DNA from: a virus
DNA: 64,000 nt
IMG/VR virus record: IMGVR_UViG_3300046697_000072
Direction: 5' to 3' (one strand)
This document shows positions 5,407-61,567 of this stretch, piece after piece. A program made the position numbers and the translations under genes. Numbering within the stretch: position 1 is the first letter of the stretch; each line of letters begins with the position of its first letter. The notes beneath the pieces were generated by a model, which was not told the origin of the DNA, searched no databases, and was given only the letters and a program-made list of their open reading frames with translations.

Positions 5407-5952
5407 ATGCGCCTTCATGCAACGTTGCACGGAAGCCAGGCGAACGGTCCCGGCCTCCGGAGTGTGGTGTGGGTCCAGGGCTGCTCACTCGGCTGCAAGG
5501 GGTGTGTCAACCCGGAAACTTGGGACGCGGACGGCGGCTATGAAGTCCACCCGAACGTTATCGCCTGTCGCATAATTCGGAATGCCGCTCCGAACACTGA
5601 GGGACTTACCATATCAGGCGGTGAGCCACTCCAGCAGGGGATCGAACTGCTGTATATGATCCAAGAGATTAAGCGGCTTCGCCCGGCGTGGTCGGTTGGG
5701 CTTTTCTCGGGATACACCGAGTCGGAGTTGCGCAGAATCCCCCGATGGACCGCCATCCGTGCAACGTTGGACTTCGCGGTTTTGGGCCGGTATGACCGGA
5801 CCCAGGCGTGTAGCAAGCCACTGGTTTCAAGCGCAAACCAGGAGCTTGTGCTCTTGAGTTCCAGATATACGCTCAATGATTTTCCGGCTCAGTCCGAAGA
5901 GGTCTTCGTCGGGCCGGATGGATTATGTCAGATCACCGGGTTTGCCCGGTAA
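5407..5952 (+). CDS. radical-SAM activating enzyme, NrdG-like
   Basis: ANGPGLRSVVWVQGCSLGCKGCVNPETW (CxxxCxxC cluster in NrdG/PflA-type context); TISGGEPL SAM motif; ~180 aa. Confidence 0.75.
   Translation: MRLHATLHGSQANGPGLRSVVWVQGCSLGCKGCVNPETWDADGGYEVHPNVIACRIIRNAAPNTEGLTISGGEPLQQGIELLYMIQEIKRLRPAWSVGLFSGYTESELRRIPRWTAIRATLDFAVLGRYDRTQACSKPLVSSANQELVLLSSRYTLNDFPAQSEEVFVGPDGLCQITGFAR
5417..5430. repeat. iterated palindrome copy ATGCAACGTTGCAC
   Basis: Codons 4-8 of the radical-SAM gene (A-T-L-H). Confidence 0.9.
5759..5772. repeat. iterated palindrome copy GTGCAACGTTGGAC
   Basis: Internal to the radical-SAM gene (A-T-L-D). Confidence 0.9.
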
Positions 5953-5976
5953 ACAACAACACAGGAGAAACGAAGC

Positions 5977-6912
5977 ATGACGCCGACAGCAGCAACAAAC
6001 AACACCAACCAGTCGATGCTCGACAAAACAATTTGTATCAGCGTCTTCCTGGGAGGCTTAGGCAACAACCGCAAGGTCCGCAACTCCGAAGTGGGGATTG
6101 ACAGCGACGACATACACGTCTCTAAGACGTTACTTGAGTCGCCCGAGTACGAGGCCATCAAGCGGTTCGACCGGGCCACAATCAAGTGGCTCAACAACAA
6201 GTGCATCCCCAGCTTCTTCCGGGCCGGGATCTACTGCGTTCCTATCCCTTCGGTGCAAGAGGCCGAGGGCTTCATGAAGGAACGCTTCACGGGCCGGGCT
6301 GAACTGGTGGATAAGCTCCTGGAAGTCTACGACATTCAGAAAGCTCAGGCCGAAACCCGACTCGGGACCGTTCAAGTCGGCAGCGTTCAGGTGAATGTCT
6401 ACAACCCGCTTGAGTACCCGCCCAAGTCCGCAGTCCAGGCGGCGTATAAGTTCGAGTGGAACTGGATTAACCTCGGCACGCCCGGTAAGCTCAAAAGCAT
6501 ATCGATGTCGTTCTTCGAGCAAGAGCAGCAAAAGGCTGCTGCGAAGTGGGCAGAGGCCACAGATCAGGTCAAGGCCCTGATGCGGTCCCAGTTCAAAGAG
6601 TTGGTCGATCACCTCGTGGACAAGTTGACCCCGGATGAGAAGGGGGCTCGTAAGAAGTTCCACGCCACCACGGTCAACAAGGTCAAGGAGTTTCTGGATG
6701 CGTTCTCGGTCAAGAACGTCACCGACGACACCGAACTGGAGCAACTTGTCGGGGCTACGCGGAAGCTCATGGATGGGGTGGATGTCGATCAGATCAAGGA
6801 CTCGGACCACCTCCGTTCGAACATCCAGAAGGGCTTCGGGATCGTCAAGGACTGCCTGGATCAACTGGTGGTCGAGGGCGGCACCAGAAAGATTTCGTTT
6901 TTGGAAGAATGA
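5977..6912 (+). CDS. hypothetical protein (tentatively DUF3150-like)
   Basis: 311 aa; ACAGGAG RBS; N-terminal ISVFLGGLGNNRKV...SKTLL..PE...IK pattern; family assignment unverified. Confidence 0.4.
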   Translation: MTPTAATNNTNQSMLDKTICISVFLGGLGNNRKVRNSEVGIDSDDIHVSKTLLESPEYEAIKRFDRATIKWLNNKCIPSFFRAGIYCVPIPSVQEAEGFMKERFTGRAELVDKLLEVYDIQKAQAETRLGTVQVGSVQVNVYNPLEYPPKSAVQAAYKFEWNWINLGTPGKLKSISMSFFEQEQQKAAAKWAEATDQVKALMRSQFKELVDHLVDKLTPDEKGARKKFHATTVNKVKEFLDAFSVKNVTDDTELEQLVGATRKLMDGVDVDQIKDSDHLRSNIQKGFGIVKDCLDQLVVEGGTRKISFLEE

Positions 6913-6924
6913 GGAGTGAACCCA

Positions 6925-7866
6925 ATGAAGCTACAGATCAAATCATTAGCTGGCTCGCTGCTATTTGAGTCCGAGTCGGAATCACTGAAAGAGCTTCTGG
7001 TGGGAGCAGTTGAATCCCGTGCGAACCTCTCCGGTGCGAACCTCTACGGTGCGAACCTCTCCGGTGCGGACCTCTACCGTGCGAACCTCTCCGGTGCGAA
7101 CCTCTACGGTGCGAACCTCTCCGGTGCGAACCTCTCCGGTGCGAACCTCTACGGTGCGGACCTCTCCGGTGCGAACCTCTCCGGTGCGAACCTCTCCGGT
7201 GCGAACCTCTCCGGTGCGGACCTCTCCGGTGCGAACCTCTACGGTGCGGACCTCTCCGGTGCGAACCTCTCCGGTGCGAACCTCTCCGGTGCGAACCTCT
7301 ACAGTGCGAACCTCTCCGGTGCGAACCTCTACGGTGCGGACCTCTCCGGTGCGAACCTCTCCGGTGCGAACCTCTCCGGTGCGAACCTCTACCGTGCGAA
7401 CCTCTCCGGTGCGAACCTCTACGGTGCGGACCTCTCCCGTGCGAACCTCTCCGGTGCGAACCTCTACGGTGCGGACCTCTCCCGTGCGAACCTCTCCGGT
7501 GCGGAGGGTATAAAGGATCTCGCTTCTCTGGAGTGGTTCATGAGAAACTTCAAGAAAACCAAACATGGAGTGATCGTGTATAAGTGTTTTCACGGCACTT
7601 TCGCTCCAAATCCATGCTGGAAAATCGAACCGGGGACCGTCCTCACCGAGATCTGTGGACCAATGCCGACCGATGACTGCGCCTGCGGCTTAAACTTCGC
7701 CACGTTGGAATGGGTCAGAGCGAATCACCCCGGGAAAATCATCTGGCGTTGCCTGATCCGCTGGGCGTGGCTCCCCGGAGTTGTGATCCCGTGGAATACG
7801 AACGGGAAGGCCCGGTGTTCGAAACTGATGCTCTTACGGCCACTGAAGGAGGGTGAAACAAAATAG
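6925..7866 (+). CDS. pentapeptide-repeat protein with non-repeat C-terminal domain
   Basis: ~32 consecutive A(N/D)L(S/Y)(G/R) pentads, then a ~120-aa Cys/Trp-rich domain; GGAG RBS favours ATG 6925 over GTG 6916. Confidence 0.9.
7018..7500 (+). repeat. tandem 15-bp DNA repeat (about 32 units)
   Basis: Unit GGTGCGAACCTCTCC with few substitutions (AAC/GAC, TCC/TAC, GGT/CGT/AGT); codon choice is nearly identical in every unit. Confidence 0.95.
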
Positions 7867-7871
7867 TACGG

Positions 7872-7888
7872 GGCAGGCTCAGCCTGCC
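7872..7888 (+). terminator. stem-loop after the pentapeptide gene
   Basis: GGCAGGC-tca-GCCTGCC, 6 nt after the stop. Confidence 0.4.
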
Positions 7889-7912
7889 TCCCGCTCCAAT
7901 GGGTGCCTGCAC

Positions 7913-7926
7913 AGTGCAACTTTGGA
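7913..7926. repeat. 13/14 variant GTGCAACTTTGGAC
   Basis: Intergenic, 43 nt upstream of ATG 7969; central CG changed to CT. Confidence 0.6.
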
Positions 7927-7968
7927 CTCGGAGGCTGTCTGAACAACAGCCCACAGGAGGAAGCGCCT

Positions 7969-9407: not shown

Positions 9408-9622
9408 CCCGCTTGCTGCTGGACTTCCTGAAATACCTGGGATGGTGCCAACACACGAAGTATTCTTTCCCCCGCACTGACCCGGCCACCGGCGTTATGA
9501 GCACGGTCTGTTTGGACTGCACGCATCGCTTCGAGTACGACTGGGAGCACATGCGCCGGGGTAAACCGGTGCCGGACCCCGCAACCCCGCGTCCAACGTT
9601 GCACAAGGAGGTGACACAGTGA
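9404..9622 (+). CDS. small Cys/His protein
   Basis: 72 aa; C..H...CLDCTH pattern. Confidence 0.55.
   Translation: MTRLLLDFLKYLGWCQHTKYSFPRTDPATGVMSTVCLDCTHRFEYDWEHMRRGKPVPDPATPRPTLHKEVTQ
9591..9604. repeat. iterated palindrome copy GTCCAACGTTGCAC
   Basis: 15 nt upstream of GTG 9619 (P-T-L-H in the upstream gene). Confidence 0.9.
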
Positions 9623-10288: not shown

Positions 10289-10528
10289 ATGAAAGACGAT
10301 ACACGAAGGAAAATCTTTTGTAAGGCTCGCCAATTGGGGTTCTCTGTCAAGATGTCTGCCGCCGCCTTTGACCTTGCCGCCCGCGCCTTATGCCGAATGG
10401 CACAGAACGGGGATAGCGACATCCGGAAAGCGCTGGAACAGGAAGCCCCAGATATCGACGCGGCCACGGACTACGCGGCAGAAGTTTTGTGCCGTGCAAC
10501 GTTGGATTGCTCTGAGGAGGTGAAATAG
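10289..10528 (+). CDS. hypothetical protein
   Basis: Internal ATG of ORF 10220-10528; start uncertain. Confidence 0.45.
   Translation: MKDDTRRKIFCKARQLGFSVKMSAAAFDLAARALCRMAQNGDSDIRKALEQEAPDIDAATDYAAEVLCRATLDCSEEVK
10494..10507. repeat. iterated palindrome copy GTGCAACGTTGGAT
   Basis: 24 nt upstream of ATG 10531 (A-T-L-D). Confidence 0.9.
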
Positions 10529-10530
10529 TC

Positions 10531-12020: not shown

Positions 12021-12034
12021 GTGCAACGTTGGAC
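12021..12034. repeat. iterated palindrome copy GTGCAACGTTGGAC
   Basis: Intergenic dnaN/recT, abutting the recT RBS. Confidence 0.9.
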
Positions 12035-14286: not shown

Positions 14287-14961
14287 GTGTCCAACGTTGA
14301 ACTAACGTACAACGCCGAGAAGCACGAATACCGAATCGGGGGCCGAAAGGCCCCCGGCATAACGACCGTGCTTTCGGCCATGTCGTACTATCCCTCTCAG
14401 GGGCACTACACGGATGAGAGCCGCAGGCGTGGAACGGCAGTACACCACGCCTGCTACCTCCTGGACGAGCACTGCCCCCAGGCAACCACGGTCGATGAGG
14501 CCCTGGAAGTCCTGGACCTGGACGACCGCCTGATCCCCTACATGCAGGGGTACTTGGCTTGGAAACGGGAGAGCGGGTTCATCCCTCAGAGGCATGAGTT
14601 TCAGGTTTGCTCTGCCAAGCTGAACATCGCGGCCACACCGGACCTGTACGGGATATTCCCCGGACCATGCGGAGGTGTGGTTGAACTGAAGACTTGGAAA
14701 GCCGCCCCGCCGAAGTGCCAGCGATCCGCTGAACTCCAGACCGCCGCGCAAGCCTTGATGATCGAAGAATACCTGGGGCTCCCGGTCGAGCGCCGGGTGG
14801 TGGTGGCGTTGACCGGGAACCCGGATCACCCACACCGGGCTTACGTCTGTGACCGGCCCGGAGACAAGAACATCGTAGCGTTCCTGGCACACGTGTTCTG
14901 GGACCGCGTTAACTCCCGGTTGCTGGAATGGACCGGGGAGGAAGAGGAGGATGAAGAATGA
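14287..14961 (+). CDS. PD-(D/E)XK family exonuclease
   Basis: HEYRIGGRKAPGITTVLS N-terminus; D (PDLYG) ... ELK (VVELKT) nuclease motif; adjacent to RecT. Confidence 0.65.
   Translation: MSNVELTYNAEKHEYRIGGRKAPGITTVLSAMSYYPSQGHYTDESRRRGTAVHHACYLLDEHCPQATTVDEALEVLDLDDRLIPYMQGYLAWKRESGFIPQRHEFQVCSAKLNIAATPDLYGIFPGPCGGVVELKTWKAAPPKCQRSAELQTAAQALMIEEYLGLPVERRVVVALTGNPDHPHRAYVCDRPGDKNIVAFLAHVFWDRVNSRLLEWTGEEEEDEE
14289..14302. repeat. iterated palindrome copy GTCCAACGTTGAAC
   Basis: Codons 1-6 of the exonuclease gene (S-N-V-E); extra half-site GTACAACG at 14307. Confidence 0.9.
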
Positions 14962-17109: not shown

Positions 17110-17355
17110 ATGTCCAACGTTGCACTGACCATACAGGAGCGGATCAATCTGGTCCGCTCCGCGATTGAGAAAATCCGGGATGCTGAAGCCCAGTTGAAGG
17201 AGTTCGGTTGTACGAGTTCCGAGAAGCCTTTCTTCGATCTGGTTAAGCGAGCTGAGGCTAGGGGCCGTCTCGAAGCCGCCCGATACAATTGGCGCGGACA
17301 ATGGTCCAACGTCGAAGTCATCTTGCAGGAAGGTCTGAGAGAGGAGCTGCGGTAA
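17110..17355 (+). CDS. hypothetical protein
   Basis: 81 aa; start codon is embedded in a palindrome copy. Confidence 0.6.
   Translation: MSNVALTIQERINLVRSAIEKIRDAEAQLKEFGCTSSEKPFFDLVKRAEARGRLEAARYNWRGQWSNVEVILQEGLREELR
17112..17125. repeat. iterated palindrome copy GTCCAACGTTGCAC
   Basis: Codons 1-6 of ORF 17110 (M-S-N-V-A-L). Confidence 0.9.
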
Positions 17356-19125
17356 GTGGGGCTGCGACCGTATCAGCAGGAGGCAATCCAGAGCATACAG
17401 GACGAGTTCTCCCATGGGATCTCCCGGCAACTGGTCGTGATGGCCACGGGATTGGGAAAGACGGTCGTAGCTGCCCACGTTCCGCACTTCATGCCGAAAC
17501 GTAAGCGGGGAATGTTCATCGTACACCGGAACGAACTTTGCCTACAGGCCCAACGTCAGTTTGAGAAACACAATCCCGAACTGAAGGTCGGAGTGGAACG
17601 AGCGGAATACCGAGCCGGTGATGCCGACATTGTGATCGCCTCTGTCCAGACCATCGGCAAGATGAACGGAGACGGCAAACCCGGTGACCGGCTCAAGCAG
17701 TTCCGGCCCGATGATTTCTCGTGGGTCATCTGTGATGAAGTTCACCACGGGACCTCGGACACGTACCGGGCGATCTTCCGGCACATGCGGGTTCTGAAGG
17801 GGGAGCCGGACTGTAACGAATTCAAGCTGTTCTGCGGCATAACCGCGACTCCAAACCGTTCAGATTCGATAGGGTTGGAGTGCCTGTTCGACAAGATAAC
17901 CGTAGTCAACGACATCCGATTCGGAGTCCGGGAAGGCTGGTTGTCTCGTATTCATTGCAACGTAGTGGAGACGGAAATAGATCTCAGCCGCGTTCACATT
18001 ACTGCCGGGGACTTCAACGCGGCGGAACTCAGCGCAACCGTGGATACTCCCACCAGGAATGAACTGATCGCGCAAGAGTACTTGAAGAACCGGCCAGACG
18101 GGCCATCGTTCTTCTTTGTTGTCGATATAAACCACGCCCATAATCTCTCGGAAGTCTTACGCGGGCACGGGATACGCACCTATGCCATCTCTGGGAAGAC
18201 TCCGGAAGATGAGTGCCGCCGCTTCATGAAGATGATCAATGAGGGATCGATAGACGGGCTGGCCTCCGCAGGTAAGTTGAACGAGGGCGTTGACGCTCCC
18301 AGGGTTTGCGCAGCTTGGATGTGCAGGCCGACAAAGAGCCAACTCCTCTATCAGCAGATGGTGGGCCGAGTTTTGAGGCCATTCCCCAGTCCGGAAGACC
18401 TACAGGCGTTGTCCAACGTTGGACAGGCCCCGGCATGGGTCAAGCCCTTTGCGTCCATCACGGACTTCGTAGACATCTGCGGGAGGCACAGCTTATGCAC
18501 AACCCCGACTCTGTTCAGCCTTCGGCACAAGTTTGACGCGAAGCGCAAGGATATCATCGAAGCCGTTGAAGAGATCGAGGCGTTGGAGGCCGAGCACCCC
18601 GGTCTGGACTTGCGGAGCGCCCCGAACCTGGACGCGATCAAGACCTCGCTGCACCGGCTGGATCTTCTTGCTACCCCAACCACTCCGCCCGAGCTTCGCA
18701 AGATCAGCAAGTTCGTATGGCTGAAAGAGCAGGAAGATTCTTTCCACCTGGGGCTTATGGATGGGGCGCTTTTATCAGTGCGCGTGAACACCCTTGGCCA
18801 GTGGGATGTCTACCGCCACATGAAGGGTATCCGGACCAAACTCTGGGTGGCACACGATCTCAAGGAGGCCGTGCAGAAGGCCGAAGAGGAGATCCCCTCA
18901 AGGGAGGCTCGAATCCTCTCTGCCGAAGCTGGCTGGCGTCGAGAGGGGCCTACCGAAAAACAAGCGGCACGATTGATTATGCGGGACCACAAGCTCCGTC
19001 AGGAGTTCGGTAACTCCGAAAATCTGTACGCTTTCCTGTGTGACCGGTTTGAGCATGGAGATCTATCCGCGTCACGCGGAAATATATCCGCCCGCATCTC
19101 GTCACTTGAGGAAGCAAGACGTTAG
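17356..19125 (+). CDS. superfamily-2 DEAD/DEAH (ResIII-type) helicase
   Basis: RPYQQEAI, MATGLGKT (motif I), CDEVHH (II), ITATP (III), QQMVGRVLR (VI). Confidence 0.85.
   Translation: MGLRPYQQEAIQSIQDEFSHGISRQLVVMATGLGKTVVAAHVPHFMPKRKRGMFIVHRNELCLQAQRQFEKHNPELKVGVERAEYRAGDADIVIASVQTIGKMNGDGKPGDRLKQFRPDDFSWVICDEVHHGTSDTYRAIFRHMRVLKGEPDCNEFKLFCGITATPNRSDSIGLECLFDKITVVNDIRFGVREGWLSRIHCNVVETEIDLSRVHITAGDFNAAELSATVDTPTRNELIAQEYLKNRPDGPSFFFVVDINHAHNLSEVLRGHGIRTYAISGKTPEDECRRFMKMINEGSIDGLASAGKLNEGVDAPRVCAAWMCRPTKSQLLYQQMVGRVLRPFPSPEDLQALSNVGQAPAWVKPFASITDFVDICGRHSLCTTPTLFSLRHKFDAKRKDIIEAVEEIEALEAEHPGLDLRSAPNLDAIKTSLHRLDLLATPTTPPELRKISKFVWLKEQEDSFHLGLMDGALLSVRVNTLGQWDVYRHMKGIRTKLWVAHDLKEAVQKAEEEIPSREARILSAEAGWRREGPTEKQAARLIMRDHKLRQEFGNSENLYAFLCDRFEHGDLSASRGNISARISSLEEARR
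18411..18424. repeat. iterated palindrome copy GTCCAACGTTGGAC (perfect)
   Basis: Internal to the helicase gene (S-N-V-G). Confidence 0.9.
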
Positions 19126-29853: not shown

Positions 29854-29856
29854 CGA

Positions 29857-34299: not shown

Positions 34300-34307
34300 C
34301 GTTGGAC
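34294..34307. repeat. iterated palindrome copy GTGTAACGTTGGAC
   Basis: The C-to-T variant creates the TAA stop of gene 34075-34299; 24 nt upstream of the -35 box at 34332. Confidence 0.85.
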
Positions 34308-34331: not shown

Positions 34332-34360
34332 TTGACATCATGAAACGGCCAGCGTAGAAT
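34332..34360 (+). promoter_or_regulatory. sigma70-like promoter (class B leader)
   Basis: aaaaactcTTGACA-17 nt-TAGAAT; palindrome copy 24 nt upstream of the -35 box. Confidence 0.65.
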
Positions 34361-47978: not shown

Positions 47979-50900
47979 ATCATCATCTGCATGAAAGAAG
48001 ACAGGGTGGTTTTGGTATACCCTGCATGTCGGTCAGAGCCAAGCGGCAACCATTCAATCCCAGAGGGATCTCCGTACAAAGAGAAGGTCGTCTCCCCGTC
48101 GCTCGATGCTATCGAAATGTCGTAAAGGACGGACTTGTTCAACCCGGAGCCGAACACGCTCGGGAAAAGATACCGCTCAACTGAGCGAGTAGGATGCGCC
48201 GGAAAGGGGACCACCAATGTCCCCGTGCTCGATACGAACGTCACGTTGATTGGGACCGCCGACACGTATTCGATCCACAATTGCTTCAGTAACTTGAACG
48301 CCGAATACCCAAAACTCTGCTGGTATGAGGTCCACTGGGTCACTGCGGGAGGCTCTTTCACGATATCCAGGGTCCAATCCCACAGTTGCGCCCGGCCTCC
48401 GGTTCCCGGAGTGAACAGCAACCTCCACATAAGCCCTGACAGTTCCGGGTTGCAAGCAAGGACTATTCGCCGATTCGTATAAGTCGTGTTCACCAGAAAC
48501 GTCTGTTGGGTAACTCCGTCGCTTGTTTGAAGTGCCACTGAGCACGTCACCCCTCCAGTGTTTATGGTTGCGATAAAGTTTCTGGCCAACTTCGGATAGG
48601 GGTAGCCGAAATCCTGCCATGGGGTATAAAGTATGACTTCCGGGGGATCTATAGGCCCGGCTTGATCGAAAGCGTGCCAACGCTCAAACCCCCAATTGAA
48701 CAATTGAAAGCGCCCGCCAGCCCCTTCGGTAGCAAGGATGCGCCACATCTTCGCGTGAGTATCAGCCGGGATTGCGTAGTTGAACTTTCGATTGGTGGGC
48801 GTGCCAGTATGTGTTACGGTTAGAACCGTCCCATTTTCATTTTGCAGATATACTGTGGAGGGAACGCCAGCCGTATCAGCGTCGAGCCAGAGCCATGAAG
48901 GTTCCTTGTCGTTTGGGTCTGAAGCGTCTCGCCAGTCCGTGGTGTGGATTATGTCTGGTGGGTAATCGACCTTCTGGAAAGTATACTTCCACTGCTTGTA
49001 ACCAGCCGGGATCGTAACCCCTGTAGGATAGATGCGAATCATCTTGGCGACGGTATCGGCGGCAATCGGAAATTCAGTTTTGCCGCGCCCTGTACCGAGC
49101 ACAAATTGTGCAACGTTGGAGTTCAACGTCACGCCTCCGATGCCAGTGAGGGTATCCATCTGAAGCGTGATCGGGCCGCCCAATGTCGTATCGTATTCGA
49201 AGACTACCGACAACAGCAGTTTGTCGTAGGGGTGCTCCAACTCGTCCCAGTCGAATGTGTGCTGCACTTCTCCTTTGTCTGCCTGCTGGAACTTCAGGGA
49301 GTGGTTAAAAAGCTGCCACGTCCCTTCCCTGGTGGCGAGAGCGGGTTGAGTTAAGTCAACGAAAAGCCTCCAGCGGTAACCCGTCAGTCCGGTCGGGACT
49401 GTGATGTTCCTTTGCCGGTCGGCTTCAGTTGAGATCACGGTAAACTTGAACTTGGTAACATTGTCGGCTTGGAGCCAGCACTCAACAGCTACCCCGTTCG
49501 TGTTCACTTCCAAGACCACTTGGTTGGCATACTTGAGGTACGACAGCCCGCCGTCCTCCCAGGGGGTGAATCCCGTAACATCCTCAGGGTACGTCTCTTT
49601 CTGAAAGTCAACAGAATGGATCTTGAAGAATGCGACTGAGGATTGGCCAACCGCCCCTACTGTGGCAACAGGCCGCACGCGCACCAGCTTGGCGATAATC
49701 CCATCCGTCACAGGGAAAGACTTCTTGGCTCGCCCTGCTCCCAGAATCGTGGGATTCGAAAGGACAAACGTCTGCACGGCTTCGTTGTAGGTATCCCCGT
49801 CCTTCCCTGATATCGTATCCAGAACTATCGTGCGGTCAGTTCCTTCCGTGTCGAACGTAACCGTCATCTGGTGGAGCTTTTTGTCGAAGGGATGATCCAG
49901 GTCCATCCAGTCTGTCGTCCCCCCAGCCGTCAGAAGCCCCGTCTCCTGGTACTGGAACATCAGGCTATAGAAGGTCGCTTGAGCCGGGTATGCGGTGCCG
50001 TAAATATGAAAAGAGATCGCCCGCGCTTCCCGGCCAAACGACTGAAGGCCCGCAGCCTTTGACACTACATTGGCAAGCAAGGCCACCGGCTGTCGCCCGG
50101 TCAGGCTTGTTCCAGAAGGGATGGTGACTGCCACCGAGTCTACTGCCGTGTCTGAGTAATCGAGCAGGATCTCCACCGTCATCGAAGAGGCCGGGGAACC
50201 TGTGAACAATTGCGGATCTACATCCAGCCAAATCTCCTCAAATAGTTTTTTGGCGTTCGGAAGACCGAGATCAAACCATGGGAGCCAAATATCGTATGGG
50301 ACTGCCGATCCCCCGGAAAACGGATCGACCCATCCATCTGCGGTCTGGTCTGTCCCAGCCGCGATATTCACCGCATCTGCGATAACGAACGTGGCCCCGA
50401 GAGAGGGGCTGTCCAGCGCCAGAATTAGAGACTGAGTATCCGGCTCGGTGTAGATTGTTGAGATTTCGGAAAATGGCGAATAGGTCTCCGGGTACAGGCT
50501 CCATCGATCCCCATAAAGGGGTTCGCACATCAATTCCTGCATGACGTTATTGATGTCTCTGTAGAGCAGGCGGATCACTCCACGCCGGTATTCCATGCGG
50601 GCGTAGAGGAGCGCGTTGGGCTGCATACTGATCGGCGGAATCCCGTTGACTTCCATACTGTGGAAGATCGGGTCGATGGCCTCAGTCCGTTTCTGGAGCG
50701 ATCCACCATCCCAGGACCAGATGCCATCCGTGGACAGGAACCAGACTTCAGTTTCCGTCTTACACCATGCCGGCTGCGCGACGAGCCCCTTCTCCGCTAT
50801 CTTTACCGGAGTCAGCAAAGAGCCTGAGATGAGCGGCACTTCAAATAGGCTGCTGACATTCATGGAAAGGATCTGGCCCCGGTACTCACAAAAGTTCACG

Positions 50901-52624
50901 ATCCCGTTGGCTGGGGTTCCGACCCCAATGTTAGTCACGGCCCCGGAAGCGTCCGTGCCCACAGGGAAGGCTTCGGGGTAGCCCGACTTGCTCTTGTAGA
51001 GTATGTGCGGATTGTTGGGATCACCAGCCACCAGAACAGCATCTCCCACGTTGGCTGTCAGGTTGCACGGCTGGCCAGCGATGGCATCCACGGTGATGAC
51101 ATCCCCGTCTTCGTGGACGTACTGGAAGTACACGATGATCGTGGTGCCGGAGATCGCTCCGATTATGCAGTCTTCGCTCCCGCTGGTTGCGGCTATGTGT
51201 GCCAATGTTCCTGGGGTGAGATTATAGGCGGATGGCAACGCTGCCAGAGACACAGCCATCCACCCGGCATCGAAGATTCCCCCCGCAGCAGAGATCGTGC
51301 TGGAGTACGGGACCGGGACCGTGCTGGTCACCGGCATGTCGTTGTCGATCTCGATCTGATTGTTGTAAATCTGAACGGTGTCTGCGATGTTGTCCACGAA
51401 AGTTGCGGGGTTGGGGACCCCGGCGGTTACTCCTGGATTGGGGACAGATCCAACGAATCTCCAGGTATCGTAGTTTAGACCCCCACGGCGGTAGATGTTG
51501 AGTGTCTTGATATCCACGTCGGGGCTTCCCCAGACGGTAACCGCGACTTGGCCCAAATGAACAGCAAGAGGGATGCCGGAATTGTTCCCTCCCATCGCAA
51601 AAGAGGCATCCGGCACCATCACCTGAGAAGGGTTCCCTTCATTGCCTGTCAGCCCAGAAATGCCAGTCCATCGCCAATCGTAAGGGATCGAACTGGCCGG
51701 GCTTTCGTCCGCGCCGCCATCTAGCAGCCCGATGGCCAGCCCGTTGGGAGATCCAATCTGGGTGATCGTCCCAGCGGCAGTGATCGTACCTGAACCTGTC
51801 ACCATCTGGCCGTTGCTGTCGAAGAGGCGGAACATCGTGGTCGGGTTGTCGATTGTCACTCCATCCGCATCGACTACCCCAACTCGGATGTCCCATGTGT
51901 CGTTAATGTCCGTGCGCCCATCGGTCGTTGTGACGGCGAAGGTGCCCGTCACCCCCGCGATCTTGACCGTGCTATCGTCCAACATGGGGACCGAAGGTGT
52001 TTGATCTTGAGGGGCGGAATCAAGTACGATGACCACCCCGCCCCAGGTGGGCCAGTTCGTGTAGATGTAGTCAATGGAGATAGCCGGGGCCAAAGTCTTC
52101 GGCGTTGCATCTGGGACTTGTACCGCTTGCGCCACTCCGGCGGATGGTGGAGTACCCCATAGCGGCAACGGAGACTGTGGAGTTACCCCGCTGTCCTTGA
52201 GCATGGCCTTCGGACAGGCGAAGAATCCGAATGGCTGACCAGTTTCCCCAGCCGCATACGACGCCATCTCCCAGTGCTTGCCAACTCCCTCTACGCTAGC
52301 CGCCACCACTACTGCGGTTTTGTAATCGTATGTCCGAAGGATGTTCTGGTTGATGTCCAGATAGCGAGGGTTGGAAGATGGAACAAGTGGGTCCTCATTT
52401 GGCGTCACCACCAACTTTCGTACAACGTTGCACGGGGACAAGCCCGCGCCCAAACTGCCAATGAGCTTGGACCCGGTGCGGCTCGAAAGAGCGCCCTCCT
52501 GGACGGAATAGACCCCGGACAGACGGCGATACCTTCCGTCTTTCAGGAGATCCGGGCTCTCTTTGTTCACCATCCCTTGGTGAGAGAACCGAAAGGCGGA
52601 AGTTTTTGAGCCCGGATTTTCCAC
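47975..52624 (-). CDS. 1549-aa giant structural protein (possibly tail-hub or nozzle-like)
   Basis: N-terminus QGMVNKESPDLLKDGRYRRLSGVYSVQEGALSSRTG recalls podovirus tail-tubular-B N-termini (weak). Confidence 0.45.
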   Translation of the reverse strand: MENPGSKTSAFRFSHQGMVNKESPDLLKDGRYRRLSGVYSVQEGALSSRTGSKLIGSLGAGLSPCNVVRKLVVTPNEDPLVPSSNPRYLDINQNILRTYDYKTAVVVAASVEGVGKHWEMASYAAGETGQPFGFFACPKAMLKDSGVTPQSPLPLWGTPPSAGVAQAVQVPDATPKTLAPAISIDYIYTNWPTWGGVVIVLDSAPQDQTPSVPMLDDSTVKIAGVTGTFAVTTTDGRTDINDTWDIRVGVVDADGVTIDNPTTMFRLFDSNGQMVTGSGTITAAGTITQIGSPNGLAIGLLDGGADESPASSIPYDWRWTGISGLTGNEGNPSQVMVPDASFAMGGNNSGIPLAVHLGQVAVTVWGSPDVDIKTLNIYRRGGLNYDTWRFVGSVPNPGVTAGVPNPATFVDNIADTVQIYNNQIEIDNDMPVTSTVPVPYSSTISAAGGIFDAGWMAVSLAALPSAYNLTPGTLAHIAATSGSEDCIIGAISGTTIIVYFQYVHEDGDVITVDAIAGQPCNLTANVGDAVLVAGDPNNPHILYKSKSGYPEAFPVGTDASGAVTNIGVGTPANGIVNFCEYRGQILSMNVSSLFEVPLISGSLLTPVKIAEKGLVAQPAWCKTETEVWFLSTDGIWSWDGGSLQKRTEAIDPIFHSMEVNGIPPISMQPNALLYARMEYRRGVIRLLYRDINNVMQELMCEPLYGDRWSLYPETYSPFSEISTIYTEPDTQSLILALDSPSLGATFVIADAVNIAAGTDQTADGWVDPFSGGSAVPYDIWLPWFDLGLPNAKKLFEEIWLDVDPQLFTGSPASSMTVEILLDYSDTAVDSVAVTIPSGTSLTGRQPVALLANVVSKAAGLQSFGREARAISFHIYGTAYPAQATFYSLMFQYQETGLLTAGGTTDWMDLDHPFDKKLHQMTVTFDTEGTDRTIVLDTISGKDGDTYNEAVQTFVLSNPTILGAGRAKKSFPVTDGIIAKLVRVRPVATVGAVGQSSVAFFKIHSVDFQKETYPEDVTGFTPWEDGGLSYLKYANQVVLEVNTNGVAVECWLQADNVTKFKFTVISTEADRQRNITVPTGLTGYRWRLFVDLTQPALATREGTWQLFNHSLKFQQADKGEVQHTFDWDELEHPYDKLLLSVVFEYDTTLGGPITLQMDTLTGIGGVTLNSNVAQFVLGTGRGKTEFPIAADTVAKMIRIYPTGVTIPAGYKQWKYTFQKVDYPPDIIHTTDWRDASDPNDKEPSWLWLDADTAGVPSTVYLQNENGTVLTVTHTGTPTNRKFNYAIPADTHAKMWRILATEGAGGRFQLFNWGFERWHAFDQAGPIDPPEVILYTPWQDFGYPYPKLARNFIATINTGGVTCSVALQTSDGVTQQTFLVNTTYTNRRIVLACNPELSGLMWRLLFTPGTGGRAQLWDWTLDIVKEPPAVTQWTSYQQSFGYSAFKLLKQLWIEYVSAVPINVTFVSSTGTLVVPFPAHPTRSVERYLFPSVFGSGLNKSVLYDISIASSDGETTFSLYGDPSGIEWLPLGSDRHAGYTKTTLSSFMQMMI
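49108..49121. repeat. iterated palindrome copy GTGCAACGTTGGAG
   Basis: Internal to the 1549-aa gene (S-N-V-A); adjacent half-site GTTCAACGT at 49121. Confidence 0.9.
52420..52433. repeat. iterated palindrome copy GTACAACGTTGCAC
   Basis: About 200 nt into the 1549-aa gene (C-N-V-V). Confidence 0.9.
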
Positions 52625-56400: not shown

Positions 56401-58681
56401 TAACAGATGAGATCGTGACCGGAGCCGTGAGCGTGGTACTGGCCTCAAACCATGAGTTTGCTACCGACGTGCAAGTCAGAGTCGATGTGGTATTCGGGTT
56501 GAAAGAATAAGACACGCCTGCGCCAGAACCGCCCCCACCGCCCGAACCGCACTCCGTACCAGTCCCGGTGACCGCTCCTGTAGGACCAGCATGGAGGCAC
56601 TGATTGCCAGACCCGGTGACGGTGAGGAGCGTAAGGATTCCGCTGCCATCAATGATGCTCTGCGCGGACCCGCCCACGCCCAACCAGAATCCGCCGTTGC
56701 TCCCCGTGCCTGCGCTGACATGCTGGCCGTTGGCCGTGCTGATCGTTCCTGCCGCCGCGACGTTGTAGACATTCCCAATTGAGATCGTCGGGCATCCGGT
56801 AGCGTCACATTGGATAATCCCGGTGGTCCCGACGTAGTATCCCGCTACAGCCGTCAGGCTCGTGTTGGCCGTGACTGAACCGGGGAACGGGTTCCCTCCA
56901 CCTCCCCCGCCGCCTCCACCTGATCCGCAATCTGACCCGGTTCCGCCGACAACGCCAAGCGAATTGACGTGAAGGCATTGCGTCATCCCCGCCACGTCGA
57001 TTGTCAGATGTCCAAGCAGGGACGTGGCACCGGAAACCGTCAGACCTGAGAACGATCCGTTCCTGCTGGAATCGATGGCCGTTACGCCGCTGATCTCAAA
57101 AGCATTGGACGTGTTGACGTAGCCGGTGGTGCTGATGTTCAAGCTGCCGTCGATGATCGTTGTTCCACCTACTGCGTAACTGCCCGCCGCGATCCCCGCA
57201 TTTGCTCCGCTCCCTCCAACCTTGAACCCCACCCCTGCTGCGGTCTGAACTCCGACAGTTCCGCTGAACTCCAATGTGCCCGAGGTGGGCACATAGGCGC
57301 TTGCGCCCTGCCACAAGATACGACCAAAGTTCCCTAACCCGTCGATCTTGATGGCCACAACATTGGCCGAATTCAAGATGGAATTCGCGTCTTGCAGGTT
57401 TTGAACCCAGACCCCGTATCCGTTGACCACATGACCGCCGCCGCCGCCGTAACCTCCTGGTTGCCCAACGATGAGTCCCGCCCAGGTGTTCAGCGTCACA
57501 CCGGAAGAGACTTGCGCCAAACTTGCCAGGTAGTTCATGCCCAGATTTGCGGTGTACGCCGATGCGGGAGTCTGGTAGTACAGTTCGGAGTCCACCGCTT
57601 TCTGCTGGCCGCGAATGTAAGGCGAACCGTATCCGGAATCGGTCGGGAGATTCATCGCTCCAAGGACTACCACTCCGGCCAATCCGAACTGGTCCCATCC
57701 GTTCGATCCTTCGTCAACCGTGGTCCGCACCACTCGCACTACCGAAGACACGCCCCTCGATTCGTTGTCCTGGTTCAACCAGGTATGGTCGATGTTTGAC
57801 ACCACGTACCCGAGCGCGGTTGAATCGTTCAGGCTCGCGCCGCCCCAAGCGGTGAACCCGTTCCCGTCGATGACTTGGTTAGAGCCTACGTACACCCCTC
57901 CGTTGAAGGTCTTGGCTCCTGTGATCGTTTGCGTGGTGTTGGTCGTAACGCACGTCGGGCAGTTCGCTGCCGAGATCCCCGTGAGCCATGCCGGGGCGTT
58001 GTAGGTCTGCGTGGTGTCCACGGCGTTGGTCACCATGGCAGCCGTGTAGTCTCCCGTGGTAGGGACCACCGCCCCCGTCCTGGTGTTGAACGAATTGACA
58101 ATAGCCTGAAAGGTCGGGTCCGCACTTGCCTCGTTGGACACCAGACCGTAGTTGGCTGTACCTGCCGCCGTCACAGAGAGCGCCGAACTCCCTTCCCCGA
58201 CAAGCACCCCATGAGCAGTGAACGACGAGGCTCCGGTCCCTCCTTGCGCCAAAGTGATCGGATATACCGCAGACGCCAGCGATGTTGACAAGTAGAAATC
58301 TTTGCAGGCCGAGTAGGTCACGGTGGCAGCCCCGGTCACAACGATCTGGATGTACGGGTGATAGCCATTTGAATAGGCAATGGGCGGGTTGCTAACCTGA
58401 GTGATCGTAGCCTGAGAGCCAAAACTTGTCCACGGACCCGCGCAAGAAGTGTCGGAGAAGTTCATGGCAACGGTCCATGCTCCGGCCCCGGTGGCGTAGA
58501 TGCTGTGGTAGTTGTTATGGCGGGAAACTGCGCTGGAGTTATTTATTCCGTTGGTGCCGCATTCCGCAGAAGCCCAGGAACTTGTGATCCCGTAAATCCT
58601 GGTAATCATCAAGCTGGTCTGAGAGGTCTGGGATAGTCCAACGTTGCACAGCAGAAATAAAAACGGCAGTAGTTTTTTCAT
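53459..58681 (-). CDS. 1740-aa secreted giant fibre or tailspike-like protein with C-terminal parallel beta-helix repeats
   Basis: MKKLLPFLFLLCNVGLS/QTSQ signal; three G(T/S)GS(D/E)CGSGGGGG modules; C-terminal NNTLDGG.. / IANNKCEN.. / ITANTMAN.. / ITGNTIQG x2 repeats. Confidence 0.65.
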   Translation of the reverse strand: MKKLLPFLFLLCNVGLSQTSQTSLMITRIYGITSSWASAECGTNGINNSSAVSRHNNYHSIYATGAGAWTVAMNFSDTSCAGPWTSFGSQATITQVSNPPIAYSNGYHPYIQIVVTGAATVTYSACKDFYLSTSLASAVYPITLAQGGTGASSFTAHGVLVGEGSSALSVTAAGTANYGLVSNEASADPTFQAIVNSFNTRTGAVVPTTGDYTAAMVTNAVDTTQTYNAPAWLTGISAANCPTCVTTNTTQTITGAKTFNGGVYVGSNQVIDGNGFTAWGGASLNDSTALGYVVSNIDHTWLNQDNESRGVSSVVRVVRTTVDEGSNGWDQFGLAGVVVLGAMNLPTDSGYGSPYIRGQQKAVDSELYYQTPASAYTANLGMNYLASLAQVSSGVTLNTWAGLIVGQPGGYGGGGGHVVNGYGVWVQNLQDANSILNSANVVAIKIDGLGNFGRILWQGASAYVPTSGTLEFSGTVGVQTAAGVGFKVGGSGANAGIAAGSYAVGGTTIIDGSLNISTTGYVNTSNAFEISGVTAIDSSRNGSFSGLTVSGATSLLGHLTIDVAGMTQCLHVNSLGVVGGTGSDCGSGGGGGGGGGNPFPGSVTANTSLTAVAGYYVGTTGIIQCDATGCPTISIGNVYNVAAAGTISTANGQHVSAGTGSNGGFWLGVGGSAQSIIDGSGILTLLTVTGSGNQCLHAGPTGAVTGTGTECGSGGGGGSGAGVSYSFNPNTTSTLTCTSVANSWFEASTTLTAPVTISSVTCPPASGGYVDLSFTFSQGSTVYAVTLPSPFDGSLWALMPINSSMTCSGKYDGTSWPATCTSSSNDTILPGTVTFSGITGTVQCAHFNALGELSGTGSDCGSGGGGGTPGGSSGQIQYNNGGVFGGFTAGGDLTFSQPSFTLNTVNSSPVSCGSSTQSCVLTINGKGLVTASSTATISGGGGGGNPFAGSVTANTALTPDAGYYVGTTGVIQYSASLGGVVNIGNVFNINSNSGNIVTCQIYGGSCVGAGTGHVGSGAGTYGGYYIYNTQIIDGSANAHLGTVNSSSGTFTGSVTANATPTNTAGFYIQFPSSNPFGYTGNTGIIQYATGSPSVVDIGHVQDITAGGTIFTTGHLAATPSSDIVAETLIGYTGGSADLLDVYSQPSGGGKVFSITHSGQLLAFGSGSSNWSSLEFLPSATYADLVFSAGVGATYSAFQMVAVASSTPYITLQIGSRNYIGASSPECASFIGGICVSGSSGPYNVQGYNFTPYSCNMTTSTCVPGGTSSGTLSSGTHALTFTPCPVGAASFVPASPHAFWYYISGGSGTAEAAYVSGTTCTSGSSTGTMTLYGLSYSHGGSFVIGSATAGAQEAAIAAGASNAGNPTGPLYFPFGTYSFYAPVYIDNGARVFGGGTSQSLIVNWNGSNGLFDVDGGPAVSFSNLRMDSIGTVSSGNYAIRIGSNVETSFSSVDHVLFNNFYDEILGVSMNQLSVSDSTFYQFHHTAITAQDTACPDCGGPTVTSNRFLNYSVSPAAEAAILINSSSEHMISNNTLDGGNAVKYFVEYNSTTSGGWINIANNKCENTTLGCIVLTGYGAQTAITANTMANSGNFASWDAILVNGSSGAGFPWGTITGNTIQGASGSNSNIAAWLQGTTSDWTITGNTIQGVDYAYLINGSPTGVTVTLGNTRTIYTSQAYAVSSGVIVEGGQMSYATMTSTSVGLGNTGNSSHTYCLDCNITCTLGSSTGQSCVKVNGAWTH
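58636..58649. repeat. iterated palindrome copy GTCCAACGTTGCAC
   Basis: Signal-peptide codons of the 1740-aa gene (C-N-V-G). Confidence 0.9.
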
Positions 58682-60068: not shown

Positions 60069-60079
60069 CGTTCGCCACC

Positions 60080-60322
60080 TTACCCGATGATATGCCCGGC
60101 CTTGAACATTGACCCGCCGCGTTCGAGGCGCTTGCCGAAGTTTCGCAGAGCCCTGTAGTCATGACGAGAAGCTTCGACGAACGGCATCGGCCCACCGTGC
60201 TCCATGACCTCGTGGGCTTCGTGAAGATGGTCCTGAGCCTGCATCATCGCCTGATCTGGGCCGACGAGACGCCGCCCCTTCAATTCGTTGGGAGCCATGT
60301 ACTCCCGGAAACTGTCGCACAT
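60080..60322 (-). CDS. hypothetical small protein
   Basis: 80 aa. Confidence 0.5.
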   Translation of the reverse strand: MCDSFREYMAPNELKGRRLVGPDQAMMQAQDHLHEAHEVMEHGGPMPFVEASRHDYRALRNFGKRLERGGSMFKAGHIIG

Positions 60323-60325
60323 ACG

Positions 60326-61480
60326 TTATCCTCCTAATTGATCGTACACCGAGAAATCGGGCCGAGCCTGCATCGCATTGTAGGAACTCACCCCACGAAC
60401 CTTGTCGATGAAGTTCGAGAGCATCTGCATGTAGCGCCCCTGGTCCATGTTGATGGCGTCTTCGAGATAATCTTTGTACTGCTGCTCGCAGAAAGCTGCC
60501 GCCGATGGGTCGTAAAAAGGATCGACGCGACCTTCTCGGGGGATTACTCTCGCGAGAAGAGCATCGGCCTGCGCCCCCGCGATGAAGATCTCTTCGTTCA
60601 GGAAGTACGGTGACAGGTCGTTGTCGTTCACCAGCCGGGGCCAGCCGTCTTCGTAGACGAGATTGATGAGCCTGCCTGTCATCTGCTGGGGGTAAAGCTC
60701 CCACTGCATGACTCCAGCCGGGTGCGGTGCCATCATGCACATCGCCTCCGGGTCACCGGTGTTCGTCCGCTGCGGGTCCCCCATGTTCAGGAAGTCCTGG
60801 GTCTGCTCGGTGTTCAGGACATTCCCGGCCAGTGCGTCATAGGCGAAGCGCAGGCGCTTGGCCGTAGGGGTGATCTGGCAGTAGGCCGAGTAGATGACGT
60901 ATGGGTTGCTGGTCACAGCCAGCCCGCCCCATGGCCGGTCCATAACGGCGCTGGTGGCCGACAGAATCCCGGTGATGGTGAAGATGTAGTCGTTCACGTC
61001 CAGTTGCCGGTTAGCAAGGGTGGATGCCTGGACCGTGGCCCCGGTGTTGTGCTGATACCGGCAGTAGACCGTGAACGTGTCCGGCCCGGTCTTGCGGATC
61101 GGCAGGATCTCCATGATCGAGGGGTTCTCCATCTCGATCACAACGTAGATCCCCTGCTGAATCTTGTCCATTGAGGCCGGGGATAGCTCCACAAACCCGG
61201 TGTCCCTGGAGTCTGAAGTGAGGGTGGTGTTGACCAGATCGTTGACCGGCCACGCGGTTGCGACTCCGGTGACAGCCGTTGAGCCTGGGGTGAGGTCCAC
61301 AGATCCGGTGCTGTAGGCGTCCGGGACCACCAGTGATCCCATCCGGAGCGTGTCGCTCCAGCGGTACTTCTCCAGAACGGACCTGATCCGGCGATTTATG
61401 AATCCGTCGATTTGTGACGGAGGGGCATTGGGCTTCCGGTCGGCCACCAATCCGCGCATCGTCCAGAGCGATTCCGCCAT
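60326..61480 (-). CDS. 384-aa structural protein, first gene after the late promoter
   Basis: GAGGGT RBS; downstream of promoter 61498-61526. Confidence 0.5.
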   Translation of the reverse strand: MAESLWTMRGLVADRKPNAPPSQIDGFINRRIRSVLEKYRWSDTLRMGSLVVPDAYSTGSVDLTPGSTAVTGVATAWPVNDLVNTTLTSDSRDTGFVELSPASMDKIQQGIYVVIEMENPSIMEILPIRKTGPDTFTVYCRYQHNTGATVQASTLANRQLDVNDYIFTITGILSATSAVMDRPWGGLAVTSNPYVIYSAYCQITPTAKRLRFAYDALAGNVLNTEQTQDFLNMGDPQRTNTGDPEAMCMMAPHPAGVMQWELYPQQMTGRLINLVYEDGWPRLVNDNDLSPYFLNEEIFIAGAQADALLARVIPREGRVDPFYDPSAAAFCEQQYKDYLEDAINMDQGRYMQMLSNFIDKVRGVSSYNAMQARPDFSVYDQLGG

Positions 61481-61497
61481 ACACTACCCTCACCGGC

Positions 61498-61526
61498 ATC
61501 ATACGACAACCGGGCAAGGTTTTCAA
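61498..61526 (-). promoter_or_regulatory. sigma70-like promoter for the tail/fibre operon
   Basis: Minus strand: TTGAAA-17 nt-TATGAT; palindrome copy 27 nt upstream of the -35 box. Confidence 0.6.
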
Positions 61527-61553
61527 TAGCTTAGGGCAGAATCAGATGGGCGC

Positions 61554-61567
61554 GTGCAACGTTGGAC
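61554..61567. repeat. iterated palindrome copy GTGCAACGTTGGAC
   Basis: Intergenic; 27 nt upstream of the -35 box of the late promoter. Confidence 0.9.

Follow-up and report, generated by a model that had tools for sequence, protein, structure and literature searches.

Sets of dispersed operators, such as the KorB OB palindromes of the IncP plasmid RK2, the inverted repeats bound by the phiC31 repressor, and the P1 C1 operators, comprise a dozen or more copies per 40- to 100-kb replicon and allow one protein to coordinate many transcription units, in some cases over a distance. Short dispersed repeats of phages are a recurring puzzle, the mechanism being known for stoperators only. Stoperators of Cluster A phages (L5, Bxb1, and TipsytheTRex) are asymmetric 13-mers recognized, in one orientation only, by the monomeric two-domain immunity repressor of a temperate phage (PMC9283540). 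The start-associated sequences (SAS/ESAS) of Cluster K phages are nonpalindromic 13-mers of unknown function with a Shine-Dalgarno (SD) core, which stand 3 to 7 bp before the start codon, in one orientation and in the nonstructural half of the genome only (PMC3203893). Cluster O mycobacteriophages (Corndog and its relatives) carry a 17-bp dyad repeat, 5'-TGTTCGGNNNCCGAACA, of unknown function, which was predicted to bind a dimeric protein. Corndog has 34 copies, about 40% of them intergenic, 30% near 5' ends, and 30% internal; the repeats show no orientation bias, few lie at SigA promoters, and indels are occasionally flanked by two of them (PMC4351075). The Cluster O repeats have been unsolved since 2015. 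Here we describe a 14-bp dyad, GTSCAACGTTGSAC, in 64,000 nucleotides of DNA (the window, i.e., the whole stretch analyzed) from an uncultured phage of about 104 kb (IMG/VR virus record IMGVR_UViG_3300046697_000072). We favor the explanation, to which we give about an even chance, that this 14-mer is the recognition site of a sequence-specific double-stranded DNA (dsDNA)-binding protein, most probably encoded by the phage, that acts on transcription through gene junctions.

We searched the window for GTSCAACGTTGSAC, allowing up to two mismatches and taking dinucleotide shuffles as the null. All 24 copies that a preliminary description of this DNA had listed were recovered at their coordinates, a number far above that in the shuffles (mean, 0.99; maximum, 5). 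As a control, bacterial and metagenome-assembled genome (MAG) DNA that contains RecT but is unrelated (1.07 Mb) held six isolated matches and no locus with at least two copies. The density was 0.09 per 10 kb in the control DNA and 2.4 to 6 per 10 kb in motif-bearing phages. The site is real, and the shuffles and the control together rule out chance or base composition as its source. The window is 99.9 to 100% identical to a 103,751-bp metagenome contig (JGI 3300046698, Ga0495367_000140), through which we read 8.9 kb rightward and 9.2 kb leftward, covering about 82 kb of the genome altogether. These extensions add six copies, giving about 30 per genome (24 in the window plus 6).

An oriented alignment of the flanks of the window copies contained no information beyond 14 bp. 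The unit is thus exactly 14 bp and stands by itself; indeed, the uninformative flanks rule out a longer repeat or a mobile element around it, both in the window and in two related contigs, A and B. The site is a 5-N4-5 dyad (GTSCA-N4-TGSAC) with two arms of 5 to 6 bp that lie one helical turn apart. It had been called a palindrome, a label that fits only 3 of the 18 copies whose variable positions on both sides are G or C, since the other 15 are hetero forms that join a GTGCAAC half to a GTCCAAC half (p = 0.0075). The dyad is a quasi-palindrome with one enforced asymmetric position pair. Furthermore, the dyad accounts for 23 of the 27 AACGTT hexamers in the window while the genome purges palindromic hexamers, and therefore the dyad is kept against the compositional grain.

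Graded relatives were found through the RecT-fusion protein of the phage. In L072, whose RecT protein is 91% identical, the same 14-mer occurs seven times in 17.5 kb, and six orthologous sites are identical at 81 of 84 positions (96%), compared with 375 of 480 positions (78%) in the flanks (p = 8.6e-6). These sites include a copy deep in a coding sequence whose product has only 63% identity between the phages. The comparison shows purifying selection on the orthologous dyads, together with turnover, as 3 of 9 window sites have no counterpart in L072. In L080 (RecT 42% identical), the form (A)TGTCCA-N4-TGGACA(T) was found six times against 0.02 expected; L087 and L088 carry the form (G/A)TCCAATATTGGA(C/T), and L077 has degenerate copies only. 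The center differs by lineage, being CG in the window and L072, TA in L087 and L088, and a free N4 in L080, and a common core, T[CG]CAA-NN-TTG[CG]A (TCCAA-NN-TTGGA variants), exceeds simulation by far in each relative that bears the motif. Directly 5' of the ribosome-binding site (RBS) of RecT stands a copy whose position recurs in four to five lineages: the window, L072, and L088 retain it, the L077 copy is degenerate, and in L080 the copy lies just past the clamp gene.

Searching IMG/VR with the variant GTCTAACGTTGGAC returned two contigs of about 59.6 kb and a 13-kb contig, which held 16, 13, and 6 exact copies, respectively. One of these contigs has the AAA ATPase, 311-amino-acid protein, DnaB, exonucleases, and KTSC protein of the window. 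All three combine a constant GTCCAAC half with a variant GTCTAAC half, at hetero-to-homo ratios of 20:0, 14:2, and 7:1. The two IMG/VR relatives of about 60 kb have 21 and 16 copies, of which 8 of 21 (p = 0.004) and 8 of 16 (p = 0.0017) lie near junctions, and they match the window in copy number, junction bias, asymmetry, and random orientation. Diverged relatives keep the site as a family in which one half, GTCCAA(C), stays constant while the other is specific to the lineage and the center changes, and this manner of evolution offers a handle for finding the protein that reads it (the reader) by covariation.

Because the half-sites covary with the phage lineage, a phage-encoded reader is the most likely one. 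It is unlikely, in our estimate, that the sites are instead bound by a host transcription factor or nucleoid protein, borrowed for regulation or soaked up as a decoy on genome amplification. Such a factor would fit the finding that the TA-centered form GTCCAATATTGGAC (GTCCAA-NN-TTGGAC) is present in two to five copies on other IMG/VR contigs of 36 to 62% GC, where it also stands at gene junctions. A phmmer comparison of all phage proteins with all open reading frames (ORFs) of the contig stretches found no protein shared by this phage and those unrelated contigs. In L198, L141, and L162 (IMG/VR), GTCCAA-NN-TTGGAC is often followed 3 to 5 nucleotides on by ATTAAA and then by an RBS and ATG, and L212 has five dyad copies in 1.7 kb. 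A host factor would also accord with the lack of a phage-encoded binder in our searches. However, the variant half-site differs by phage lineage (GTGCAAC, GTCTAAC, and GTCCAAT), as if it coevolved with a fast-evolving phage protein, and the bacterial and MAG control had no multicopy locus.

We compared the orientation of the asymmetric sites with the strand of the genes. In the window, the ratio was 7:6 for plus-strand genes and 4:4 for minus-strand genes (Fisher p = 1.0); the corresponding values were 10:6 and 2:2 in contig A and 0:1 and 7:6 in contig B. Pooled over the three genomes, 29 copies were co-oriented with transcription, with the variant half upstream, and 26 were anti-oriented, with it downstream. 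The site is orientation independent, and any mechanism has to accommodate this together with the single enforced asymmetry. A stoperator-like roadblock, suggested in the preliminary description, survives as a possible working mode, whereas the tie between orientation and transcription that marks stoperators is missing in all three genomes, which rules out identity with them. Like stoperators, the dyads are more than 20 short dispersed sites, placed at promoters and in short intergenic spaces, for which a roadblock model is plausible; unlike them, they are quasi-palindromic and randomly oriented, and neither a repressor nor an integrase was found in about 82 kb. A promoter for an alternative sigma factor or a phage RNA polymerase is also ruled out by the random orientation and the absence of information in the oriented flanks of the window and contigs A and B. 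The likeness of CGTTAGA to the SPO1 late -35 element was rejected as a lead, as a -10-like partner is lacking (only 2 of 28 cases).

A site-specific endonuclease, nickase, or DNA-modifying enzyme might also act on an asymmetric site of this kind, for example, a phage HNH enzyme that nicks it. Phages with sequence-specific nicks are known, and this phage encodes HNH endonucleases in two ORFs of the window and endonuclease VII in an extension. Nevertheless, we regard this explanation as very improbable, since the asymmetric site shows no strand bias and the positions of the HNH genes are not conserved among the relatives.

Among described systems, the Cluster O repeats are the closest known analogue and agree in each descriptive trait. 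Both sets comprise about 30 or more short dyads spread over the genome in a mixture of intergenic, 5'-proximal, and internal positions; in both, orientation carries no meaning, few copies are near promoters, copies disappear through point changes, repeats flank some indels, and the phages are apparently lytic. In contrast, the unit here is 14 bp rather than 17 bp and of another sequence, the asymmetric pair is kept here only, and the lineage is unrelated and uncultured, with a core that can be traced through deeply diverged relatives despite a changing center, which is unreported for Cluster O. We found no close relative among deposited phages in INPHARED, neither a DNA match nor a match for the 384-amino-acid capsid-region protein. 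Because of this and because the sequence differs from TGTTCGGNNNCCGAACA, the relation is one of analogy and not of homology. The dyad-repeat phenomenon thereby extends beyond actinobacteriophages to an environmental phage lineage of about 60 to 104 kb.

The gene map used to place the copies was our own codon-usage call, corrected with independent JGI/Logan calls (starts at 1138 and 17110). The copies in the window and two sigma70-type promoter-like sites beside them are as follows.

1094..1107: dyad GTCCAACGTTGTAC (one mismatch), 3' end of gene 768-1130, 30 nucleotides ahead of the start at 1138.
2886..2899: dyad GTCCAACGTTGAAC, deep in the AAA-ATPase gene 2504-3979.
5417..5430: dyad ATGCAACGTTGCAC, codons 4 to 8 of the radical-SAM gene 5407-5952; missing in the relative L072.
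5759..5772: dyad GTGCAACGTTGGAC, deep in gene 5407-5952; 14/14 positions kept in L072, with flanks about 74% identical.
7914..7927: dyad GTGCAACTTTGGAC, intergenic, 41 nucleotides ahead of the start at 7969; the L072 orthologue is degenerate.
9591..9604: dyad GTCCAACGTTGCAC, in the C-terminal tail codons of the gene for a 72-amino-acid zinc-ribbon protein, abutting the RBS of the gene for a 196-amino-acid protein (start at 9619); position kept in L072 and L080.
10494..10507: dyad GTGCAACGTTGGAT, ending 23 nucleotides ahead of the start at 10531; homology to L072 breaks exactly here.
12021..12034: dyad GTGCAACGTTGGAC, intergenic, between the clamp stop codon and the RecT-fusion RBS; the most widely conserved position (L072, L088, and L080; degenerate in L077).
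14289..14302: dyad GTCCAACGTTGAAC, codons 1 to 6 (VSNVE) of the exonuclease gene 14287-14961; kept in L072.
17112..17125: dyad GTCCAACGTTGCAC, codons 1 to 6 (MSNVA) of the 81-amino-acid ORF 17110-17355, just past the KTSC gene; an indel breakpoint relative to L072.
18411..18424: dyad GTCCAACGTTGGAC (perfect palindrome), deep in the helicase gene; not kept in L072.
29349..29362: dyad GTCCAACGTTGCAC, in the noncoding leader of the minus-strand tail-fiber block, 86 nucleotides before the start at 29263 and about +146 from the promoter-like site 29538-29509.
31142..31155: dyad GTCCAACGTTGCAC, in the O-like initiator gene; a lone copy, no iteron cluster.
33476..33489: dyad GTACAACGTTGGAC, codons 4 to 8 of the gene for a 60-amino-acid zinc-ribbon protein, 33466-33648.
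34294..34307: dyad GTGTAACGTTGGAC, overlapping the stop codon of gene 34075-34299; center about -66.5 from P34332.
34332..34360, plus strand: sigma70-type promoter-like site TTGACA-17-TAGAAT (P34332), 11/12 match.
37438..37451: dyad GTGCAACGTTGGAC, 3' end of gene 37026-37463, 29 nucleotides ahead of the start at 37481.
38769..38782: dyad GTGCAACGTTGGAC, deep in the gene for a 928-amino-acid protein.
44069..44082: dyad GTGCAACGTTGGAC, 3' end of the minus-strand gene 44040-45743, 35 nucleotides ahead of the start of the minus-strand gene 40743-44033.
46730..46743: dyad GTCCAACGTTGGAC (perfect palindrome), in the minus-strand gene 46412-46960.
49108..49121: dyad GTGCAACGTTGGAG, deep in the gene for a 1,549-amino-acid protein.
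52420..52433: dyad GTACAACGTTGCAC, in the gene for the 1,549-amino-acid protein, about 200 nucleotides from the gene start.
58636..58649: dyad GTCCAACGTTGCAC, codons 11 to 16 (LCNVGL), in the signal-peptide-like N terminus of the gene for a 1,740-amino-acid protein.
61498..61526, minus strand: sigma70-type promoter-like site TTGAAA-17-TATGAT (P61526), 10/12 match, ahead of the gene for the 384-amino-acid protein.
61554..61567: dyad GTGCAACGTTGGAC, intergenic; center about -69.5 from P61526.
63270..63283: dyad GTACAACGTTGCAT (two mismatches), in the minus-strand gene 62931-63557.

The preliminary description had the copies concentrated at gene starts, closer than random placement would often bring them. 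This holds as far as it goes: 12 of the 24 copies lie within 50 nucleotides of a start codon, where 3.0 are expected (p = 7.8e-6). The copies at 5417, 14289, 17112, and 33476 overlap the first codons (codons 1 to 8), those at 1094, 7914, 9591, 10494, 12021, 37438, and 44069 end 14 to 41 nucleotides ahead of a start, and the copy at 58636, assigned to signal-peptide codons, belongs to an N terminus (MKKLLPFLFLLCNVGLSQ) that indeed looks like a signal peptide. However, 13 of the 24 copies are equally near a stop codon (p = 1.2e-6), and 9 of the 24 are more than 150 nucleotides from any gene boundary. Since the enrichment at stop codons is at least as strong, the signal is one of gene junctions and not of starts as such, with a minority of the copies deep inside genes. 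By class, 5 copies are wholly or partly noncoding, about 10 are at gene ends or starts, and 9 are deep in genes.

Where copies are translated, 18 of 19 use two of the three reading frames, the cheapest two, and are read as (P/A/T)TL(D/H/N/Y) or (S/C)NV(A/G/E/V). This two-frame use shows that the DNA sequence, not the peptide, is kept. In the 72-amino-acid zinc-ribbon protein, the motif-encoded residues are the sole conserved ones in an otherwise free C-terminal tail; there, the DNA constrains the protein and not the reverse.

The copies that stand between -43 and +16 around starts, several of them abutting an RBS, might be taken for an RNA-level element that forms a hairpin or serves as a translational operator before the start codon. 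This reading is by now largely refuted and hardly credible. The hetero forms fold with only 0 to -0.6 kcal/mol (the rare perfect palindromes reach about -4.8), and native-flanked 30-mers show no extra structure, at -4.83 kcal/mol versus -4.88 kcal/mol for random 30-mers. Moreover, the sense strand carries both orientations, the spacing to the start codon is variable, and some copies are deep in genes or in non-transcribed-sense contexts. The site does not form a hairpin: an RNA or DNA hairpin, a cruciform, and an intrinsic terminator are all ruled out by the weak folding of the hetero forms and the lack of excess over random 30-mers. The translation-linked role that had been envisaged is disfavored on similar grounds, namely, both orientations, variable spacing, a third of the copies deep in genes, and a hetero form that cannot fold. 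The dyads share with SAS that they are short repeats tied to gene starts, but identity with SAS is ruled out, as copies here stand anywhere from about -86 to +45 relative to the start codon and in either orientation upstream of it, structural genes are included, and the motif contains no SD sequence.

Promoter association was assessed at about 12 strong sigma70-like sites (at least 10/12 matches) in the window and extensions. A copy lies within -150 to +200 of only four of them, at -66.5, -69.5, +16.5, and +146.5. The stronger promoter-like sites at 8864, 10890, 29811, and 29824 have no copy nearby, nor do the two promoters that are conserved in L072. The three promoters proposed earlier fared differently, although the distances given from copies to their -35 boxes (24, 27, and 39 nucleotides) are correct: P34332 (11/12) and P61526 (10/12) are good sigma70-type matches, whereas the "fiber-operon promoter" at 29281-29309 matches at 9/12, a level as frequent in shuffled sequence. 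An activator or UP-site role for the upstream copies is thus not borne out, for it depends on two copies (-66.5 and -69.5), while the other ten strong sites have none or have one at +16.5 or +146.5. A fixed position upstream of the -35 box, as in a class I activator or UP-type feature, was not seen across the about 12 strong sites.

Comparison with L072 also bears on recombination. Homology between the window and L072 breaks exactly at the copies at 10494 and 17112 and within about 50 nucleotides of those at 5417 and 7914, and a gene for a 61-amino-acid protein in L072 is bracketed by same-orientation copies at 13657 and 13844. The dyads could then be microhomology or recombination sequences at module boundaries that exchange small genes, perhaps via the RecT/exonuclease system. 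Only about 4 of 12 indel events touch a site, which is roughly the chance level, since the sites occupy about a quarter of the junctions and whole-gene indels must end at junctions. In addition, 14 bp is short for annealing-based recombination, and the dyad symmetry, the deep intragenic copies, and the conservation of the core across lineages are left unexplained. We consider this explanation improbable, even though it recalls the repeat-flanked indels reported for Cluster O (PMC4351075).

Taken together, the arms one helical turn apart, the selection inside genes, the family-wise conservation, the orientation independence, and the absence of secondary structure argue for a protein-binding site on dsDNA, and we infer that the binding protein is encoded by the phage and affects transcription. 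The general proposal of the preliminary description, a protein-binding regulatory site at gene boundaries, agrees with the dyad architecture, purifying selection, and core conservation, while its specific readings fare worse. The reader may be dimeric or have two reading heads, one per arm, and selection would hold about 30 sites for it across the genome of about 104 kb. The bound protein would act on RNA polymerase traffic at junctions in either orientation, perhaps as a roadblock or insulator that times or partitions the expression of long early and late transcription units, and the few promoter-proximal copies would be ordinary operators.

Several points weigh against our favored explanation. 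The junction bias could simply show where a fixed 14-mer is tolerated in a genome that is 93 to 96% coding, and a third of the copies are deep in genes, which a purely junction-directed role does not explain. Most copies are away from recognizable promoters, with no fixed geometry, and the strict single asymmetry is not predicted by a symmetric dimer. The occurrence of GTCCAA-NN-TTGGAC in several copies on unrelated contigs could point to a host factor. Finally, when about 75 proteins from about 82 kb were compared with Pfam, PHROGs, and PDB sequences, no helix-turn-helix (HTH), ribbon-helix-helix (RHH), ParB-type, or other DNA-binding protein was recognized, and two folded and conserved neighbors of the dyads, the RecT fusion and the 196-amino-acid protein, have no significant match to a DNA-binding fold.

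The first of these points leads to the main rival, in which the dyad is a position-independent genomic tag for the loading of a ParB/KorB-like or condensing protein, the organization of replication or packaging, or self-marking, and the junction bias is tolerance only. We hold this to be possible, though rather doubtful. A tag would account for the 9 of 24 copies deep in genes, the use of the two least costly frames in 18 of 19 coding copies, the turnover between close relatives (3 of 9 sites not shared with L072), the similar occupation of early and late blocks, and the irrelevance of orientation; the authors of the Cluster O study likewise doubted a transcriptional role (PMC4351075). On the other hand, about 82 kb held no ParB-family or other candidate protein (no Pfam or PHROG match to ParBc/KorB among the scanned proteins or in the precomputed Pfam annotation of the extensions), and the spacing of copies is not more regular than random (coefficient of variation, 0.83; p = 0.22). 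Nor would a pure copy-number model lead one to expect the junction 5' of the RecT RBS to retain its copy in deeply diverged lineages, and no copy at all is present in a leftward early block of 6.8 kb that has 22 gene junctions.

For the favored explanation, a phage-encoded reader at junctions, we looked for candidate proteins. The RecT protein at window 12050-13939 is fused to a C-terminal region of about 380 amino acids, consisting of an α/β domain and a helical domain, that is conserved in full-length relatives. Its AlphaFold model has a significant PDB match for the RecT core only, and its sigma-like matches (E > 0.1) were not taken as evidence. The 196-amino-acid protein (window 9619-10209) is the conserved neighbor of the RecT-proximal dyad: its gene adjoins the RecT gene in L077 and L088 and is one small gene away in L087. 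The C-terminal tail of the protein (...PARNMPGNKLVQ) is nearly invariant, and its confident model (pLDDT 81) has no significant match in PDB or BFVD. The ubiquitous KTSC protein was rejected as the reader, because it belongs to a single-stranded-DNA-binding family. Presumed likenesses of the dyad to NtcA, LacI-family, NrdR, LexA, and TraR-box sites were dropped, as half-site registers do not match or the centers in relatives contradict them. The regulators of the KorB, phiC31, and P1 C1 operator sets are recognizable (ParB type or HTH) and their sites are mostly promoter associated, neither of which was found here.

Since no HTH, RHH, or ParB protein is detectable, the reader may have a novel fold. 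It is conceivable, although we think it unlikely, that GTCCAA-NN-TTGGAC "junction boxes" constitute a new genome-wide control system in several deeply diverged lineages of uncultured phages, with a reader fold not yet tied to DNA binding. Such a reader would recognize a quasi-palindrome that is asymmetric by design and would work at gene boundaries whichever way the site faces, as a symmetric counterpart of stoperators in lytic phages that times early, middle, and late expression. If so, this would supply a function for Cluster O-type repeats. Identification of the reader would show how large lytic phages with few recognizable regulators organize transcription, and it could give a compact orthogonal DNA-protein pair. 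Annotation pipelines could use such motifs to mark where genes begin and end in "dark-matter" phages.

The copy at 31142 lies within the O-like initiator gene. Iterons of a replication initiator (lambda O type) were rejected as an identity for the dyads, as this copy is single and has no cluster of half-sites, and no consistent switch in orientation was seen around the putative origin. Just upstream of it, at window 30880-31060 in the same gene, purine-rich short direct repeats (AACAGAAGAATAC and related) possibly mark the origin region.

The window is phage DNA, with genes of phage type that encode the RecT fusion, two exonuclease-like proteins, a beta-clamp, DnaB, the O-like initiator, helicases, and long tail proteins. 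We sought clues to the host: no tRNA genes were found, a genome scan returned the widespread RecT core alone, and a metagenome scan returned a 1-kb fragment. Palindromic hexamers are strongly avoided throughout the window, in which GGATCC is absent (22 expected), CTCGAG, GACGTC, CGTACG, ACGCGT, and GTGCAC are each absent (about 11 expected), and nearly every 6-bp palindrome is at or under expectation. This avoidance suggests a host rich in type II restriction systems.

Two HNH endonuclease ORFs of the window are at 29805-30542 and 35837-36268, and HNH genes are found elsewhere in relatives (L072, 12233-12841; L080, 3761-4525 and 17119-17970); these differing positions are consistent with mobile homing endonucleases. 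The stop codon of the 81-amino-acid ORF 17110-17355 directly abuts, in frame, the start of the helicase ORF at 17356 (feature 17110-19125). This helicase matches its PHROG profile from position 271 onward only, and the L077 homologue has 895 amino acids, so that 17110-19125 may be a split or read-through gene. A pentapeptide-repeat gene at window 6925-7866 (Pfam E = 1e-70) has a DNA repeat with a 15-nucleotide period that is the source of the most frequent 12-mers of the window; its array is shorter in the otherwise 99.9% identical 103.7-kb contig (283 versus 313 amino acids). The gene for the 928-amino-acid protein (37960-40746, minus strand), the last of the late block, has a borderline Sigma70_r2 match at residues 792 to 840 (23.3 bits versus a cutoff of 24), which is probably spurious.

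Glycosyltransferase, methyltransferase, and nucleotidyltransferase genes and SU10-type adaptor domains adjoin the 384-amino-acid capsid-region gene (window 58678-64000; L084, 5232-11373), and these modifying-enzyme genes parallel the capsid-modification genes reported in Cluster O phages. In the rightward extension, an Acb2/Tad1-like gene (anti-CBASS/anti-Thoeris sponge family, by precomputed Pfam) at L084 3628-4108, i.e., window about 68836-69316, is preceded by a 10/12 sigma70-like promoter with a dyad copy at about +16.5. Leftward, a block of about 22 small genes (L093, 1-7041; window -9232 to -2192) carries no dyad copy. The divergent control region at L093 6780-7041 has one perfect copy 56 nucleotides ahead of the first rightward gene, and it also carries two copies of a 20-bp direct repeat, GGATTCGGCTGGCAACAACC.

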